NCBI GenBank assembly: GCA_963790205.1
Contig: CAWBNQ010000001.1
Span: forward strand, 1,088,001-1,152,000
Length of the DNA stretch: 64,000 bases
Direction: 5' to 3'
DNA from: Nitrospirota bacterium
GTDB taxonomy: Bacteria; Nitrospirota; UBA9217
Made by a program: the position numbers and the translations under genes. Shown piece after piece: positions 45,807-55,317 of this stretch. Under the pieces are notes generated by a model, which was not told the origin of the DNA, did no database searches, and worked only from the letters and a program-made list of their open reading frames with translations. Within the stretch, counting starts at the first letter, position 1, and each line of letters opens with the position of its first letter.

Positions 45807-45824
45807 TATATTCTCCTCCATTCC

Positions 45825-45910
45825 GCAATCCGAAATCGCCAATCCGCAATCGAATAAATCCCCATCGAATTGCTTGACAAAAACAGGCCGTATACTATAA
45901 TCGATCAGAA
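45825..45910 (+). repeat. Direct repeat B copy 1 containing a consensus promoter
   Basis: GCAATCCGAAATCGCCAATCCGCAATCGAATAAATCC...TTGACA(45874)-N16-TATAAT(45901); near-identical to 47731-47815. Confidence 0.9.
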
Positions 45911-47631: not shown

Positions 47632-47730
47632 CGGGGCGCTGGAAATATTCCGCATTCCGCATGACAGTCGTCTTGCGTTTGAGCTTCCTGCACTCTGAAC
47701 TCTGAACTTTGAACTGCAATTAGCCAATCT

Positions 47731-47815
47731 GCAATCCGAAATCGCCAATCCGCAATCGAATAAATCCCATCGAATCTCTTGACAAAAGCAGGCCGTGTAC
47801 TATAATCGACCAGAA
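47731..47815 (+). repeat. Direct repeat B copy 2 containing a consensus promoter, preceded by a TGAACTY heptamer tract
   Basis: TTGACA(47779)-N16-TATAAT(47806); CTCTGAACTCTGAACTTTGAACTGCA at about 47693-47718. Confidence 0.9.
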
Positions 47816-47835: not shown

Positions 47836-48156
47836 ATGAAGATCGACATTACTCAGCTTGCCGAGGATGAACTCATTGATCTCCACCGCCGAATCACCGA
47901 ACGCTTGCGTTTTCTGAGTCAAACACGGGCGCACCATAAGATGCTGGAATTCAAGGTGGGAGATCGGGTGAGCTTCAAACCGGACGACCGTCCTGCGCTT
48001 TGTGGCGTGCTGACCAAGTATAACAAAAAAACAGTCACGATCATTACCGACAACGGGGAGCACTGGAACGTCGCATCGGGGCTCCTGACGTTGGCGAAGG
48101 AAGTGAAAGCTTCGGAAAGTAAGCAGTCAAACGTCATTCAAATGCCCAAGCGGTAA
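47836..48156 (+). CDS. Hypothetical protein with SH3/KOW-like C-terminal barrel
   Basis: GGAGGT RBS; FKVGDRVSF...GVLTKYNKKTVTI...WNVAS. Confidence 0.75.
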   Translation: MKIDITQLAEDELIDLHRRITERLRFLSQTRAHHKMLEFKVGDRVSFKPDDRPALCGVLTKYNKKTVTIITDNGEHWNVASGLLTLAKEVKASESKQSNVIQMPKR

Positions 48157-48265: not shown

Positions 48266-51200
48266 ATGGGAATTAAATTGCATGAACTGTTAATTAACAA
48301 GGATTCATCAAGCGTAAAAGCATATCTGCAGGAATTGCCCTCGCACGAAAAGGGGGATGCATTCGAAAAACTCCTCGCCGAGCTTTACCGGGGCAATGGC
48401 TGGCTCGTTTCGGTCCAGGGCGGTCGGGGCGACGAAGGCGCGGACATTCTTCTCTATCATCCCAAGTCTCCTCAGACCGTTTCCTTCATCGTTCAAGCCA
48501 AGAACCACGCAAAACCTCTCACCCTGGACCAGACTCGCATCGAGCTCATTAAATTTGAACAACAGGCGGCACCCCGCTACAAGTGTCAGCAGTTCCGTAT
48601 CGTCGCGATTAACGGTTTCGTTCAAGAGGCAGACAAACTGGGACAATTCAATATTCTGCTCGACTCCTGGAGCTATGTAGAATCTCTGCATAAACGTTAC
48701 GACCCGGGCATGAACGCAGAGCCCAAAATTGAGTTGTACGCTCACAACCGCGCAACATATGAGAATATCCAGGACCTTTGGCAGGATAATGATCATGTCG
48801 CAGTAATACAGGCCACCGGCACAGGCAAGAGCTTTCTGATCGCGCAGCCTTTGGCCGACTTCCAGGGTAAACGCAAGATCGTCCTCGCCCCGTCTCATTT
48901 CATACTCGACCAGCAGAAATCCAAGGCGCCTTGGGCCAATGAAAAAACTACATACTGGACCTATGCGGGCCTTGCGCAAAAGAGTGAAACTGCGGTTAAA
49001 GCCCTCAAGTGCGCCCTTATCGTGCTCGATGAGTTTCATCGGTGTGGTGCCGATGTGTGGGGCAAGAGTGTTCAGATGCTGCTCGATACTCATCCTGATG
49101 CAAAGGTCCTCGGTACAACAGCAACACCCATCCGCTACCTGGATGAGAACCGGAACATGGCTGAAGAGCTTTTCGACGGTGTGGTGGCAACAGAGCTTTC
49201 CCTTGCCGAAGCTATCGTCAAGCGTATCCTGCCAGCCCCGACGTACATTAGTGCCCTTTATACAATGGAAGAGGAGGTTCGCAATCTTCTCACTGATATA
49301 GAGGCAAGCAAAAGACCTGAAGAAGAAAAGGTGGCGCTTAGGGCTGAGATACAAGCTCTCAAAGTCGATTGGGAAAAGACCTCGGGTATACCCGAGATAC
49401 TAAAAAAACATCTGCCCTCTGGCATCAATAAACTGATAGTTTTTTGCAGAGACCAGCAGCATCTCGACGAGATGGAGATTGAGGTGCAGAAGTGGTTCCA
49501 GAAGGCCGGGGTGCACCATTTTAGGGAAAAGTATCGGGTCATTAGTGCAGACCCGGCGAGTAAGAAAAACCTGCAATGTTTCAAGGATGCTGACGACAAG
49601 GATACTGTACATCTACTCTTCGCCATCGATATGCTGAACGAGGGTTTGCATATACCTGAAGTCGGCGCAGTTATCCTCCTCAGGCCCACAGTGAGCCCTA
49701 TAATATTCTACCAGCAGATCGGTAGATGCATCGAGGTAGGCAAGGACCACACGCCGATTATTTTCGATTTGGTCAATAACTTCCAGAACCTCAGGGTGAC
49801 GGATTTTCTTGTAGATCTTCAAATAGCAAAAGAGGAAGAGAAGCGGAAGCGGTCAGCATTCGATTTGGAAGATTATGCTCCTGGAATCCACATAGAAGAA
49901 CTTACCCGGCCGATCGAAGCGATATTCGAGTCTATTTACGAGCGCCTTAGCCCATGGGAGACGCAATTTGCCGCGCTGCTAACATTCAAGGAAAAGCACG
50001 GACACTGCAATGTTCCTCAGTCCTATGCCGATAATCCTGCTCTCGGTACATGGGTTAATAATCAGCGTGCATTGAAGAAAAAGAATCGTTTGCCAAATGA
50101 CCGCATACACCGATTAGAGACAATCGGCTTCGTCTGGGGTCCGCTTGCTGATACTTGGGAGCAGATGTTTGTGATGCTTCTCGCATTCAAGGAAAAGCAC
50201 GGACACTGCAATGTCCCTCAGTCCTATACCGATAATCCTGCTCTGGGTCCGTGGGTTAATACGCAACGTGCATATAAGAAAAATAATCGATTGCCAGAAG
50301 ACCGCTTGCAACGGTTGGAGAAAACCGGCTTTATTTGGGATCTGCTCGATGACGCTTGGGAGCAAATGTTTTCTGAGCTCCACAAATTTAAGGAAAAACA
50401 TGGGCACTGCAATGTTCCTCAGACGTATGATGATAATCCTGCTCTCGGGACATGGAGCAACAATCAGCGTACATTGAAGAAAAAGAATCGATTGCCAGAA
50501 GGTCGTGTGCATCGTTTGGAGGAAATCGGCTTCATCTGGGGTCCGCGCGATGATGTTTGGGAGCAAATGTTTGCTGCACTTCGCGCATTTAAGCAAAAAC
50601 TGGGACACTGCAATGTTCCGACGGTTTATAACGATAATCCCGTTCTCGGCAGATGGGTTGATATGCAGCGCCAGATGAAGAAAAAGAATCGATTGCCAGA
50701 AGAACGTGTTCAGCTGTTGGAAAAAATCGGCTTCATTTGGGATCCGTACGATGACGCTTGGGAACAAATGTTTGCGGCACTTCGCACTTTTAAGGAAGAA
50801 CATGGACACTGCAAGGTTTCTAAGTCCTATGCCGAGAATCCTGCTCTTGGTACCTGGGTGGGTACGCAGCGTGTGCGAAAGAAACGACTGCCAGAAGACC
50901 GCGTACAGCGATTGGAGGAAATCGGCTTCATCTGGAATCCGTACGATGACGCATGGGAGCAAATGTTTGTTGCGCTTCGCACGTTTAAGCAAAAACAGGG
51001 ACACTGCAATGTTCCTGCGGTTTATGACGATAATCCTGTTCTCGGTAGATGGGTTAATACTCAGCGTTCGATGAAGAAAAAAAATCAACTGTCAGAAGAC
51101 TACATGCGGAGACTGGAAGACATCGGCTTCATTTGGGATCTGCTAGATGACGCCTGGGAGCAGATGTTTGCTGCACTTAGCACGTTTAAAAAAAATAATC

Positions 51201-51367
51201 GACACTGTAATGTTCCGGCTTTGTATACCGACAATCCTGTTCTCGGTTCATGGGTTAATAGGCAACGTTCGATGAAGAAAAAGAATCGATTGCCAGAAGA
51301 CCGCGTTCAGCGACTGGAGGAAATAGGATTTGCTTGGACTCTGCGAGAAATAAGTAAGAAGACGTGA
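48266..51367 (+). CDS. Mrr-like endonuclease + SF2 (DExH) helicase + seven helicase-associated (HA) domains
   Basis: GDAFE...DEGADI...VQAK; ATGTGKS, DEFH, TATP, LNEGLHIP, QQIGR; 7x WEQMF..L..FK..HGHCNVP...LG.WV..QR...RLE.IGFIW. Confidence 0.92.
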   Translation: MGIKLHELLINKDSSSVKAYLQELPSHEKGDAFEKLLAELYRGNGWLVSVQGGRGDEGADILLYHPKSPQTVSFIVQAKNHAKPLTLDQTRIELIKFEQQAAPRYKCQQFRIVAINGFVQEADKLGQFNILLDSWSYVESLHKRYDPGMNAEPKIELYAHNRATYENIQDLWQDNDHVAVIQATGTGKSFLIAQPLADFQGKRKIVLAPSHFILDQQKSKAPWANEKTTYWTYAGLAQKSETAVKALKCALIVLDEFHRCGADVWGKSVQMLLDTHPDAKVLGTTATPIRYLDENRNMAEELFDGVVATELSLAEAIVKRILPAPTYISALYTMEEEVRNLLTDIEASKRPEEEKVALRAEIQALKVDWEKTSGIPEILKKHLPSGINKLIVFCRDQQHLDEMEIEVQKWFQKAGVHHFREKYRVISADPASKKNLQCFKDADDKDTVHLLFAIDMLNEGLHIPEVGAVILLRPTVSPIIFYQQIGRCIEVGKDHTPIIFDLVNNFQNLRVTDFLVDLQIAKEEEKRKRSAFDLEDYAPGIHIEELTRPIEAIFESIYERLSPWETQFAALLTFKEKHGHCNVPQSYADNPALGTWVNNQRALKKKNRLPNDRIHRLETIGFVWGPLADTWEQMFVMLLAFKEKHGHCNVPQSYTDNPALGPWVNTQRAYKKNNRLPEDRLQRLEKTGFIWDLLDDAWEQMFSELHKFKEKHGHCNVPQTYDDNPALGTWSNNQRTLKKKNRLPEGRVHRLEEIGFIWGPRDDVWEQMFAALRAFKQKLGHCNVPTVYNDNPVLGRWVDMQRQMKKKNRLPEERVQLLEKIGFIWDPYDDAWEQMFAALRTFKEEHGHCKVSKSYAENPALGTWVGTQRVRKKRLPEDRVQRLEEIGFIWNPYDDAWEQMFVALRTFKQKQGHCNVPAVYDDNPVLGRWVNTQRSMKKKNQLSEDYMRRLEDIGFIWDLLDDAWEQMFAALSTFKKNNRHCNVPALYTDNPVLGSWVNRQRSMKKKNRLPEDRVQRLEEIGFAWTLREISKKT
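49953..51338 (+). repeat. Seven tandem coding repeats, period 201 nt (one of 195 nt)
   Basis: GGACACTGCAATGTT-like anchor recurs near 50000, 50201, 50402, 50603, 50804, 50999 and 51200. Confidence 0.92.
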
Positions 51368-51403: not shown

Positions 51404-51428
51404 AAAGCCGGGCATAGTGCCCGGCTTT
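51404..51428. terminator. Bidirectional intrinsic terminator
   Basis: AAAGCCGGGCA-TAG-TGCCCGGCTTT between convergent genes. Confidence 0.85.
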
Positions 51429-52100: not shown

Positions 52101-54305
52101 ATGTCCATCGAAAAGAAATTCGACATATCGTTCATCTCATCCCTTGCCCTGCGTGAAAAACAGATACAGCAGAATTACCGGCCCATCATCGCCGTGCATA
52201 AGTGGTTTGCGCGGAGGCCGGGGACGTTGTTTCGCGGGCTGATTCTTTCCGAGTTCGGAGACAAACCTCTCCGGGATACGTTCTATTCGTCCAACAATCT
52301 CTCCGGTCTTACGATACTCGATCCCTTCATGGGTGGCGGCACTCCTCTTCTTGAAGCGAACCGTCTTGGCTGTGATGTGATTGGCTATGACATCAATCCC
52401 ATGGCGTATTGGATTGTGCGGCAGGAGATCGAGCATCTGGACTTGCAGGCTTATCGCAAGGCGGCGGATGATCTCATCAAAGGGCTGGAGCTGGAGGTCG
52501 GGAGTTATTACAAAACGACCTGCCTTGAGTGCGGATCGAGAGCAGCCGATGTTAAGTACTTTCTCTGGGTAAAGCAACATACCTGCACTAGCTGCGGCAA
52601 GGCGAACGATCTCTTCCCTGGTTATCTTCTTTCTGAAGACAGACGGCATACGGAGAATGTGTATGTGTGCGCAGCCTGCGGCGAGCTTCACGGCGCAAAG
52701 GACCGGGCCAAACCGGGCAAATGCAAGTCCTGCGGAGAACGGATCGTCATCGAAGGTCCGGCGAAAAGAAGCAAATATGAATGCAAGCACTGCGGCAAAG
52801 CAAACTCATATTCATTCAAGCCTGAGCATCCGCCGATTCACCGGATGTATGCCATGGAGTATCACTGTAAAAAATGCAAATCGCAGCACGAGGGAAGGTT
52901 TTTTAAGAAGCCTTCGCGGATGGATCTGGCCAAATATACGGTGGCCTCAAACCGGTTGAGCAGTATGAAGACCTTGTTTGTGCCCGATGATGTGATATTG
53001 GGGGGCGATGAGACAGCACGGCTCCATCGATGGGGGTACCAGAAATATAATGAGATGTTCAATGCGCGTCAGCTTCTCGGGCTGGAGCTGAGCTGCCGTG
53101 TAATTGCGAAAATTACAAATGAGCGCGTGCGTAATGCGGTTGCTACCAATCTTTCGGACTTGCTTCGATATCAGAACATGCTTTGCAGGTATGATTCAAT
53201 GGCGCTTAAGTCCCTCGATATCTTTTCGGTCCACGGTTTCCCCGTCGGGCTTGTGCAGTGCGAGTCGAACATTCTTGGGATCGTTAACGGCGGCGGGGTG
53301 AACATCGGGAGCGGCGGGTGGGGCAACATCATCGACAAGTATTATAAGGCCAAAGCATATTGCGATGCGCCTTTTGAGATACGGCACGAAGGGGGACGCA
53401 AGATCCAGGTCCCTATCCCTGATGAATGGATCGGGGACCGGCGTAATGGGACTGTCCCTCTGAGCAAACGTCATGCCCGGCTTCATAGCCAAAGCTCCAT
53501 GGAGGCGGACATTCAACCTGGGTCAGTAGATGCTGTCTTTACCGATCCGCCTTATTACGGGAACGTGCAGTATGCTGAGCTGATGGATTTTTGTTACGTC
53601 TGGCTCCGGAAACTTATTGACGATCCTGCATTTAAACACCACACGACACGGGACCAGCAGGAGCTTACCGGCAACGTTAACATGGAACGGGGGCTCGATC
53701 ATTTCACCGAAGGACTGTCAAACGTGTTCCAGAAAATGGCCCTGGCCTTAAAGCCCGGCCACCCTTTAGCGTTCACCTATCATCACAACACTCTCGAAGC
53801 CTACTATCCGATCGCTATTGCCATGCTCGATTCAGGCCTGGTCTGTTCCGCGTCCCTGCCGTGCCCGGCCGAGATGGGGGCTTCGATCCATATCAGCGGG
53901 ACGGGATCATCCATTGTCGATACGGTCTTCGTTTGCCGGAGCACAGGCTCTGTGCCTTCCCAATGGCTCGCAAAGACCGCGGGCGCCCTTGCCGGGTTGG
54001 TGAAAGACGATATCGAAAAGCTGCGGAAAGCGGGTCTGAAAGAAACACGCGGCGATGTTCGGTGCATTATCTACGGACACCTTATCCGACTTGCTGTCTG
54101 GGACCTGCGCCACGGATGGGACAAGACGAAACCAACAAAGGAAAAAACAGCGGCAATCGCAGCGCAGATACAAGAGTTCGGAGGGTTATTAGCGGTCGAA
54201 GAGTCTTTAAGCGAGGGTATGGAGCAGCCGGCCTTGGTACGAACTTCCGCTGTCAGGGAAGAAACTCAAAAGTATGGAGCGAGCGACGATGAAATTTCCT
54301 TTTGA
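52101..54305 (+). CDS. Adenine-specific DNA methyltransferase with zinc ribbons (DUF1156-like)
   Basis: VHKWFARRP, DPFMGGGT, several CxxC pairs, TDPPYY. Confidence 0.9.
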   Translation: MSIEKKFDISFISSLALREKQIQQNYRPIIAVHKWFARRPGTLFRGLILSEFGDKPLRDTFYSSNNLSGLTILDPFMGGGTPLLEANRLGCDVIGYDINPMAYWIVRQEIEHLDLQAYRKAADDLIKGLELEVGSYYKTTCLECGSRAADVKYFLWVKQHTCTSCGKANDLFPGYLLSEDRRHTENVYVCAACGELHGAKDRAKPGKCKSCGERIVIEGPAKRSKYECKHCGKANSYSFKPEHPPIHRMYAMEYHCKKCKSQHEGRFFKKPSRMDLAKYTVASNRLSSMKTLFVPDDVILGGDETARLHRWGYQKYNEMFNARQLLGLELSCRVIAKITNERVRNAVATNLSDLLRYQNMLCRYDSMALKSLDIFSVHGFPVGLVQCESNILGIVNGGGVNIGSGGWGNIIDKYYKAKAYCDAPFEIRHEGGRKIQVPIPDEWIGDRRNGTVPLSKRHARLHSQSSMEADIQPGSVDAVFTDPPYYGNVQYAELMDFCYVWLRKLIDDPAFKHHTTRDQQELTGNVNMERGLDHFTEGLSNVFQKMALALKPGHPLAFTYHHNTLEAYYPIAIAMLDSGLVCSASLPCPAEMGASIHISGTGSSIVDTVFVCRSTGSVPSQWLAKTAGALAGLVKDDIEKLRKAGLKETRGDVRCIIYGHLIRLAVWDLRHGWDKTKPTKEKTAAIAAQIQEFGGLLAVEESLSEGMEQPALVRTSAVREETQKYGASDDEISF

Positions 54306-55317
54306 AGTTCCTTTCGAGGAAGTGCAGGCGGACCTGGACCAGTATGTAACAGCCGTGTTCTCCGGGCTGGAATCGGAATTTCTGACCATGCCCAAGGGGG
54401 CCGGGTTCATCGATTATCCGGTATTCGAGCAAGGCTATGAGGCCCTCAAGCAGGCGACAGCAGGGTTCCGCAACTTCACGCCCGAGGCTGTGAAGAGTTG
54501 TGTGCTCTCGAATCCCATATCCCTGATCGTCATTCGCACCATGCTGGGCTTTACTCCGCCGGAGTGGGCTTATGTGGCCTCGCAGCATGCGAAAATAGAC
54601 GTGCCCCAGAATTTCGTCCGCACTCTGGACAGGAAAGTCCGCGTGACCCCTCTCTCGCCGCTCAAGGCCAAGGGCGCGACAGCTGAGCGGCTGGAAGCAT
54701 TGGTGAACGTGGCGTGTTCATTGCTCTCGGCAGGCGTTCCATCCACGAGCCCTGACAGGCTTCATCGACTCGACAAGGCGGACACCAGGTCGGGGCTGGA
54801 CAGCATCAGGGCCATGGCGGATTTGGGCGCGCCTTATGCTATGCTCCTCTATGAGCGGTTCCTCGGCAGGCCCTTTGCCGGACATCGAGATTCGGTGAGC
54901 GAACTGATCGGCGACATTCTCGAATCGGCAATCGAGAACGTATTGCACAAAGCAGGCATTACGGCCAGGAAAACGAAGCGGGCTGAAAAAATCCAGGGCT
55001 TTGATCAGTCTCCGGATTTCATCATCCCGAGCGAGTTCAACCCGCAAATCATTATCGAAGCGAAGATCACAGAAGACGATGGAACGGCCCGCGATAAAGT
55101 TACGCGCATCCAGCATTTGGGCGAGCTGAGCATGGCAGGCCAGCCGAAGGGAAAACCGAAATATGAAGTCATCGCCTGCATAGCGGGCCGAGGGTTCGGG
55201 GTCCGCAGGGAAGACATGAAAAAGATGCTTCTCGCCACGCGAGGGAAGGTATTCACGCTGCAGAACCTGGATAAGCTTGTGGAATGTACAAGGCTGAAGG
55301 AATTCAAAACAAAGTAA
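54289..55317 (+). CDS. Putative restriction endonuclease, PD-(D/E)xK
   Basis: GDILE...SPDFIIP...IIIEAK; overlaps the MTase stop. Confidence 0.75.
   Translation: MKFPFEVPFEEVQADLDQYVTAVFSGLESEFLTMPKGAGFIDYPVFEQGYEALKQATAGFRNFTPEAVKSCVLSNPISLIVIRTMLGFTPPEWAYVASQHAKIDVPQNFVRTLDRKVRVTPLSPLKAKGATAERLEALVNVACSLLSAGVPSTSPDRLHRLDKADTRSGLDSIRAMADLGAPYAMLLYERFLGRPFAGHRDSVSELIGDILESAIENVLHKAGITARKTKRAEKIQGFDQSPDFIIPSEFNPQIIIEAKITEDDGTARDKVTRIQHLGELSMAGQPKGKPKYEVIACIAGRGFGVRREDMKKMLLATRGKVFTLQNLDKLVECTRLKEFKTK

Follow-up and report, generated by a model that had tools for sequence, protein, structure and literature searches.

What would a single-chain nuclease and helicase do with seven copies of a small domain at its end? 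The question is raised by a gene at 48266..51367 of a 64,000-nucleotide stretch of a Nitrospirota bacterium genome (contig CAWBNQ010000001.1, positions 1,088,001 to 1,152,000; hereafter the window), whose product joins an Mrr-type nuclease and a superfamily 2 (SF2) ATPase to seven tandem HA domains. HA has long been listed in Pfam without a settled function, and papers published in 2024-2025 treat it as a possible module for DNA binding or target selection that was not tested there. A sequence-only reading of the window had proposed that the repeats are a modular target reader coupled to ATP-driven translocation and cleavage. The reading we favour, to which we give about an even chance of being correct, is that the gene encodes a methylase-free, SauUSI-like nuclease-translocase whose HA array would contact DNA and read its sequence. 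The gene is composed as follows.

48266..51367, + strand: whole gene, 1033 aa, with Mrr-type nuclease, SF2 ATPase, and seven HA units (open reading frame, Pfam)
48353..48640, + strand: Mrr_cat (PD-(D/E)XK-type) nuclease domain, residues 30-125, Pfam E 7.6e-08
48728..49780, + strand: SF2 helicase-like ATPase (ResIII and Helicase_C), about residues 155-505, motifs intact
49955..50155, + strand: HA unit 1, residues 564-630
50156..50356, + strand: HA unit 2, residues 631-697, modelled jointly with unit 3
50357..50557, + strand: HA unit 3, residues 698-764, modelled jointly with unit 2
50558..50758, + strand: HA unit 4, residues 765-831
50759..50953, + strand: HA unit 5, residues 832-896, two residues shorter after helix 2
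50954..51154, + strand: HA unit 6, residues 897-963
51155..51349, + strand: HA unit 7, residues 964-1028

The open reading frame and the Pfam matches agree on this layout, as the sequence-only reading had described it. The motor matches ResIII over residues 155-290 and Helicase_C over residues 379-489, and the C-terminal 470 residues consist entirely of HA units: PF03457 matches seven stretches (E 1.3e-159; 519 bits against a curated cut-off of 28.4), with unit starts at residues 564, 631, 698, 765, 832, 897, and 964 and a spacing of 67, 67, 67, 67, 65, and 67. All seven 8-residue motifs quoted in that reading occur exactly in the units, but the 'near-constant scaffold' was overstated: the units are 61-73% identical to each other and 25 of 67 columns are invariant. 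At the DNA level, Tandem Repeats Finder reports a 201-bp period with 6.7 copies and a 76% match. The array has an isoelectric point of 9.3, and the gene a GC content of 48% compared with 55% for the genome.

Both enzyme parts look active because their catalytic and ATPase motifs are conserved across a 66-member family alignment, and the nuclease and ATP-driven motor first proposed thus have their predicted motifs intact. E34, D60, Q77, and K79 are retained together in 63 of the 65 sequences covering them and likely form the catalytic set of the nuclease, judging from knowledge of the Mrr family. Walker A, DEFH, and motif VI (T184-K188, D255, E256, H258, and Q483-R487) are kept in 66 of 66 sequences or nearly so.

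We surveyed 701 HA units for differences between the units of one protein. Positions 22, 23, 32, 35, 36, 39, 40, and 64 showed within-protein differences of 0.82-0.89, all other positions lying at or below 0.76, and the ratio of within- to between-protein difference at these positions was 0.92-0.98 (93 proteins); the variable sites escape within-protein homogenisation. We analysed seven of them (22, 23, 32, 35, 36, 39, and 40) and excluded position 64, a mostly hydrophobic linker site that ranked seventh in variability. Variation had been described earlier as lying around the W..QR helix; five of the sites are indeed found there, but the set is wider and takes in loop 22-23 and linker position 64. 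The sites were re-ranked on 91 proteins, leaving out this protein and its closest relative (P0002; motor 83% identical, five-unit array). The seven re-ranked sites differ in 0.78 of the unit pairs of this protein, compared with 0.27 at the remaining positions (p=1.1e-4 by permutation, random sets being drawn from 44 variable-capable sites; p=0.002 for the five helix-2 sites 32, 35, 36, 39, and 40 alone), so that the concentration of variation at these sites exceeds chance. Residues at the helix sites are D/E in 5.8%, K/R in 19.8%, N/Q/S/T/H in 44.7%, and aromatic in 5.1% of cases, and acidic residues are scarce over most of the region that runs from the loop to the end of helix 2.

A model of HA units 2-3 built from an 87-sequence alignment reached a predicted local distance difference test score (pLDDT) of 95.6 and a predicted template modelling score of 0.79; three units modelled from single sequence gave pLDDT 37.6. 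Each modelled unit is predicted to form three helices (2-15, 30-42, and 48-56), and its linker appears to continue into helix 1 of the next unit. The only clear match among solved structures was the HA domain 2KTA (Z 7.5, root-mean-square deviation 3.1, 70 residues aligned; next Z 4.6), whose three-helix fold the modelled unit shares. Foldseek against the PDB gave no match at E<=0.001, a further comparison none at Z>=2, and no DNA-bound solved relative of the array was found in the structure searches; Myb, homeodomain, and zinc-finger chains were absent from the 50 best rows of a wide fold search, which does not exclude them. Projected onto a helical wheel, the five variable sites of the predicted helix 30-42 span 200-340 degrees, where they face opposite the conserved L30/W33/V34/Q37 and adjoin R38 (96% conserved). 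Across the tandem units, the hypervariable positions are fixed and share one surface, five of them lying on one face of the predicted helix 2.

Replacement outpaces silent change at these sites across the family. In 273 within-gene unit pairs from 61 genes, restricted to a silent divergence of <0.5 at other codons, the ratio of replacement to silent differences (pN/pS) was 1.42 at the seven sites (gene bootstrap 1.33-1.51) and 0.94 (0.83-1.06) at comparison surface sites, the gap between the two site classes being a safer result than the ratios themselves for reasons weighed below. The ratio exceeded 1 in 58 of the 61 genes at the variable sites and in 35 of the 61 at the surface sites. In the gene at 48266..51367, which was absent from the ranking, the change at variable sites is 2.0-fold (1.48-2.83) that at surface sites, and pN/pS for this gene alone was 1.13 (confidence interval (CI) 0.87-1.43).

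Comparison of close relatives revealed two regimes. Of 17 clusters whose motors share at least 75% identity, 12 diverge more strongly at the variable than at the surface sites, and in the remaining 5 the variable sites diverge less. In the first regime, motors 90-99% identical carry unrelated residue sets (difference 0.87; one pair is 99% identical), and this gene and its closest relative differ by 0.89 at the variable sites. In the second, an 11-unit lineage holds its residues unit by unit (0.26 between relatives compared with 0.89 within the protein), with a dN of 0.18 against a dS of 0.42. Two such regimes are not predicted by mere tolerance; sites that change fast between units and yet can be held in each unit behave, we infer, like specificity determinants.

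The array itself was probably remodelled. We left the variable sites out and built a tree on only 59 columns, with 63 units taken from 10 proteins. The seven units of this array cluster together (support 89/81; found in 86% of bootstrap trees) and separately from the five P0002 units; in the same tree the units of several other proteins do not group. The array was thus likely rebuilt or homogenised after the split from the P0002 motor, its units taking on different variable residues. Repeat recombination, which the sequence-only reading had suggested, was evident in a survey of 20 proteins of the fast-changing kind: an identity of at least 85% was reached by 20 of the 7,377 unit pairs, which came from 6 of the 190 protein pairs, and 7 of the 20 lay at shifted positions, which shows that unit blocks are shared and shuffled between alleles. 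Together, these sequence comparisons argue strongly for adaptive diversification at a fixed surface.

Related arrays were also seen on motors without the nuclease. About 17 such motors, 83-93% identical, nearly all carry a different array of 2-8 units, with a variable-site dN of 1.62 against a dS of 1.00; they come mostly from the contigs of one metagenome, with one viral contig (L091, L127, L129-L135, L138-L143, L145, L146, L151). A gut Lachnospiraceae-type lineage without nuclease has a four-unit array with similar variable residues on motors 75-99% identical (L073, L075, L079, L080, L082, L083, L086, L161-L179), and its steady array suggests a fixed target. No RNA sequencing run was listed as containing the gene, and two DNA runs yielded only short pieces; one low-depth contig with a changed unit order, seen in DNA reads, was not counted as evidence.

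The architecture is common in databases and is not a rarity of the host genome. A search with the nuclease-motor half of the protein as query scored 7,999 candidates, of which 3,393 proteins reached E<=0.001. In 114 of the 120 listed proteins (query included) 1-13 HA units directly follow the motor, the other six comprising five with a different repeat tail and one incomplete protein. In a library clustered at 50% identity, 1,161 clusters matched the nuclease-motor half at E<=1e-30; the best 150 of them comprise 105 with an HA array, 16 with a partial array, 12 with none, and 17 with a short or incomplete tail. Unit number varies across the family from 1 to 14. The gene is the sole HA gene of its genome and was found in 0 of 63 other genomes of the same taxonomic family (E<=1e-40); the gene family is large, accessory, and uncharacterised. 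Matches to HA arrays were found in 445 plasmid records (of 72,556) and in a single phage record (of 50,697). The arrays occur at 9 of 11 viral-contig loci, none of which matches the nuclease part, and the viral matches are mostly SF2 helicases of giant viruses. A search of genome contigs with the single protein gave no match; the alignment-based search did match. The gene occurs four times on one chromosome, where at least two copies are fragmented (L028, L029, L053, L068).

The reader slot of the same motor also holds other tandem repeats. Among 17 proteins with unusual tails that were scanned, two had a tryptophan-rich repeat without Pfam match and one had weak Myb-like repeats (E 4e-4, below the cut-off); no SRA, EVE, or PUA domain was found in the 17. 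The other repeat tails noted (P0155, P0202, P0245, P0065, P0125) are tryptophan-rich, Myb-like, or an uncatalogued helical repeat, and the Myb-like tail has a possible AP2-like end.

SauUSI (7CLG) is the best solved relative of the motor (E 1.3e-12 with a single sequence, 2e-21 with a profile). Like SauUSI, the protein combines nuclease, SF2 ATPase, and C-terminal reader in one chain and has no methylase; unlike SauUSI, it has an Mrr-type nuclease, without a PLD match, and seven diversifying HA units where SauUSI has one modified-cytosine reader. That reader of SauUSI is an SRA domain. The nuclease of SauUSI is a PLD (END nuclease preprint), and recognition by the C-terminal domain of SauUSI is reported to activate ATP-driven translocation and shredding of foreign DNA. 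Measured against SauUSI-type enzymes, the protein appears to keep the motifs of an SF2 dsDNA-translocase-type motor and has neither a PLD nor an SRA, PUA, or EVE reader. Type ISP enzymes were rejected as closest relatives, their matches being weaker than that of SauUSI (LlaGI 5FFJ, LlaBIII 4XQK; E 0.006-0.007). In these enzymes one chain begins with an Mrr-family nuclease and continues with an SF2 ATPase, an arrangement that the protein shares with LlaGI and LlaBIII at its N-terminus; it differs in having no fused methyltransferase or target-recognition domain. PADLOC and NCBIfam gave only partial motor or nuclease matches, with NCBIfam far below cut-off and the PADLOC mREase_IV profiles matching the motor, and the protein corresponds to no catalogued system. 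By the parts that define them, it belongs to neither Type IV nor Type ISP. Judged from its sequence, it appears to be a nuclease-motor-reader type of restriction enzyme that differs from known members.

A conserved cognate methylase in a separate gene was not found either. Across 36 nuclease-bearing loci with 265 open reading frames within 5 kb (several of the loci come from the same genome, and many contigs break off on one side), no partner gene was conserved, and a DNA methylase lay within 5 kb at 2 of 36 loci, of kinds unlike the methylase next to our gene (at 52101). Clear defence, toxin-antitoxin, or mobile neighbours, where present, include GmrSD (twice), CBASS, SIR2, a restriction-modification (RM) gene, nucleotidyltransferase-HEPN pairs, resolvases, and insertion sequences (IS).

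HA domains are known in other settings. Every unit here is an HA domain of the PF03457 / 2KTA kind, 2KTA being one isolated domain without DNA; the abstract of the 2KTA paper reportedly suggests that specificity varies within the HA family. The title of that paper, on a structure solved by nuclear magnetic resonance, says that the HA domain binds DNA (Mills et al. 2013). PLD-HA fusions are listed among candidate modification sensors in the END nuclease preprint. In some TniQ target selectors, those of nrdD-targeting and telomeric Tn7-like elements, HA takes the position of the DNA-binding domain, and the authors call for further study on whether HA recognises features or sequences. TtrA-type helicases are reported to be encoded by a sub-telomeric gene and to act in conjugal transfer of linear replicons, and helicase-HA genes occur in acr-aca2 operons. 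The protein resembles TtrA and TniQ-HA in its tandem HA on a DNA motor or in a DNA-binding slot; no nuclease is described there. Looking for a positive control of sequence reading, we found no TniQ-HA example with known targets: TniQ occurred in 7 of 251 genomes, and 0 of 8 TniQ proteins scanned had HA. Some long TniQ proteins carry, in place of HA, tandem repeats with cysteine pairs that resemble zinc ribbons (L192:6914-9358, L193:6326-10871), and L193 has two such genes in tandem ahead of a UvrD helicase gene.

C2H2 zinc-finger arrays and TALEs, their engineered nuclease fusions, and KRAB zinc-finger genes likewise have tandem modules with fixed variable positions; in zinc-finger arrays the variable residues follow a helix-face spacing, and fast-changing and conserved residue sets both occur. 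The HA array differs from zinc fingers and TALEs in its 67-residue modules and in having a nuclease and a motor naturally built into one chain; the structure searches listed no homologue or fold match among them. Fixed variable positions in tandem modules are described for TALE/zinc-finger-type readers in PMC11417379, and the main text of the DNA-binding repeat-protein screen there does not name PF03457. Neither an Mrr-SF2-HA protein nor an HA repeat code was the subject of a functional study in the literature searched, which was mostly without subscription papers.

In the reading that we favour, the HA modules would bind DNA in tandem, with helix-2 residues 32, 35, 36, 39, and 40 and loop 22-23 likely reading bases. 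By analogy with SauUSI, target recognition would switch on ATP-driven translocation, and the Mrr-type nuclease would then cut foreign DNA. A seven-unit site could be long enough to be absent from the 4.3-Mb host genome, which would provide self-protection. The protein would serve in defence, likely as a natural weapon against foreign DNA analogous to a zinc-finger nuclease.

Several observations weigh against this. The array has a single structural relative, the HA domain 2KTA, which was solved without DNA, and other roles are described for HA helicases such as TtrA. The nuclease is absent from 45 of the best 150 cluster representatives. Clear defence, toxin-antitoxin (TA), or mobile neighbours lie at only 13 of the 36 loci (17 by a looser reading), a count that has no background control. 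The low-silent-divergence filter raises all pN/pS ratios and some of the tested genes encode proteins used in choosing the sites, so the difference between the two site classes carries more weight than the ratios; for the gene at 48266..51367 alone the ratio is not significant. The deficit of the best conserved-code cluster relative to surface sites is borderline (-0.11, CI -0.20 to 0.00). Comparison surface sites are 39.5% acidic, which is not an independent contrast to the helix sites because that set was picked as D/E-rich, making the acid contrast partly circular. Finally, the reading does not account for how a cell would be protected by a very long site without an adaptation step.

Alternative explanations must account for the same surface. 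That its positions vary merely because they are exposed and tolerant, with the array a generic processivity or DNA-binding tail, agrees with the pN/pS interval of this gene, which includes 1, but not with a pooled ratio above 1 that stands apart from other surface sites, the 5 of 17 clusters in which variable sites diverge less than surface sites, or the avoidance of acidic residues at variable sites; we disfavour this explanation as very improbable. An arms race would also produce fast replacement on an exposed repeat face and would need no long target. The array might bind DNA with little sequence preference and diversify its surface against phage DNA-mimic or inhibitor proteins, Ocr/ArdA-type proteins being DNA mimics that inhibit, or it might sense phage proteins as leucine-rich-repeat sensors do. 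However, the units of one protein are as unlike each other as those of different proteins, which the escape from one inhibitor does not need, some lineages retain their variable residues unit by unit, and aromatics, typical of protein-binding surfaces, are rare (5.1%). We regard this explanation as fairly unlikely.

The kinship of the motor with modification-dependent SauUSI, the mREase_IV matches, and the lack of a methylase partner, as in Type IV systems, could instead indicate that the array senses modified bases or DNA structures such as ends and forks, its variable residues tuning modification or context. The PLD-HA fusions listed as candidate sensors fit this, and the HA of TtrA and of telomeric TniQ may recognise telomere features. 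Yet a few base modifications need neither hundreds of residue sets nor up to 14 different units, and the 17 proteins scanned held no known modification reader in the slot, which makes this explanation unlikely. A sequence-specific nuclease might also be selfish or act between elements, in homing, addiction, or the exclusion of rival plasmids and prophages, without a part in anti-phage defence. The gene is patchy and horizontally moved, judged by its absence from the 63 family genomes and its deviating GC content, TA genes lie nearby here and in the closest relative, resolvases, integrases, or IS adjoin several loci, HA arrays match the 445 plasmid records, and long sites are typical of homing enzymes. 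Against this, the 36 loci show no fixed insertion site or conserved neighbour, and an ATP-driven motor suits restriction over homing, from what is known of these families; we consider it quite improbable.

Beyond this protein, HA arrays at large might be undecoded natural programmable DNA readers, serving as protein-encoded, methylase-free guides against long foreign sequences, with this family as the natural counterpart of a zinc-finger nuclease that brings its own motor, a view that we put forward tentatively and hold to be possible but doubtful. About seven residues of each 67-residue unit would read a few bases, and under selection units would be rewritten and reshuffled. TniQ proteins of transposons and helicases of phages would be retargeted by these modules too. 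For a domain of such long standing, the analysis pinpoints seven candidate residues per unit, and natural pairs with near-identical motors and different arrays mean that ordinary selection or cleavage assays could settle sequence reading. Modular sequence reading, if true, would be a new route of self/non-self discrimination without methylation or RNA guides, and would provide a new programmable DNA-binding scaffold with thousands of natural units from which to learn the code.

The gene lies downstream of DUF2442, Phd/YefM, ParE, and a small unknown gene. It is followed by a hairpin and, after a 733-nt gap, by a methylase gene at 52101 with a weak PD-(D/E)XK partner (E 0.01). Two candidate signals flank it.

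47779..47806, + strand: sigma-70-type promoter match, 12/12, within a 93-nt direct repeat
51404..51428, no strand assigned: 11-pair hairpin, 36 nt after the stop, called on the - strand

Promoter-type sites numbered 12 against 6.2 expected, and the promoter upstream of the preceding 106-aa open reading frame is possibly shared with the nuclease-HA gene. The hairpin might act on the + strand as a terminator between this gene and the methylase gene. An operon with the downstream methylase-nuclease pair was rejected, given the 733-nt gap, the hairpin, and the absence of any such pair among the 265 neighbours of the 36 loci. The TA and RM neighbours on which the sequence-only reading had based a defence role are present as described; because the neighbouring methylase is not a conserved partner, the adjacent RM pair is only island-level context. 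By our reading, the gene of the closest relative also lies among small TA-like genes.

The small gene directly upstream (47836-48156) is conserved and has no Pfam match; a relative, about 85% alike, occurs in a contig of another sample, where the helicase gene does not adjoin it. The 93-nt direct repeat (45818-45910 and 47724-47815, 91% identical), of which the genome has only these two full copies, carries the sigma-70-type promoter and flanks the DUF2442, unknown, and Phd-ParE genes, a block that may have entered by duplication or insertion. The methylase gene (52101-55317) encodes a DUF1156-like DNA methylase with a long cysteine-rich insert and overlaps the 347-aa weak PD-(D/E)XK gene, with which it probably forms an unnamed RM pair.

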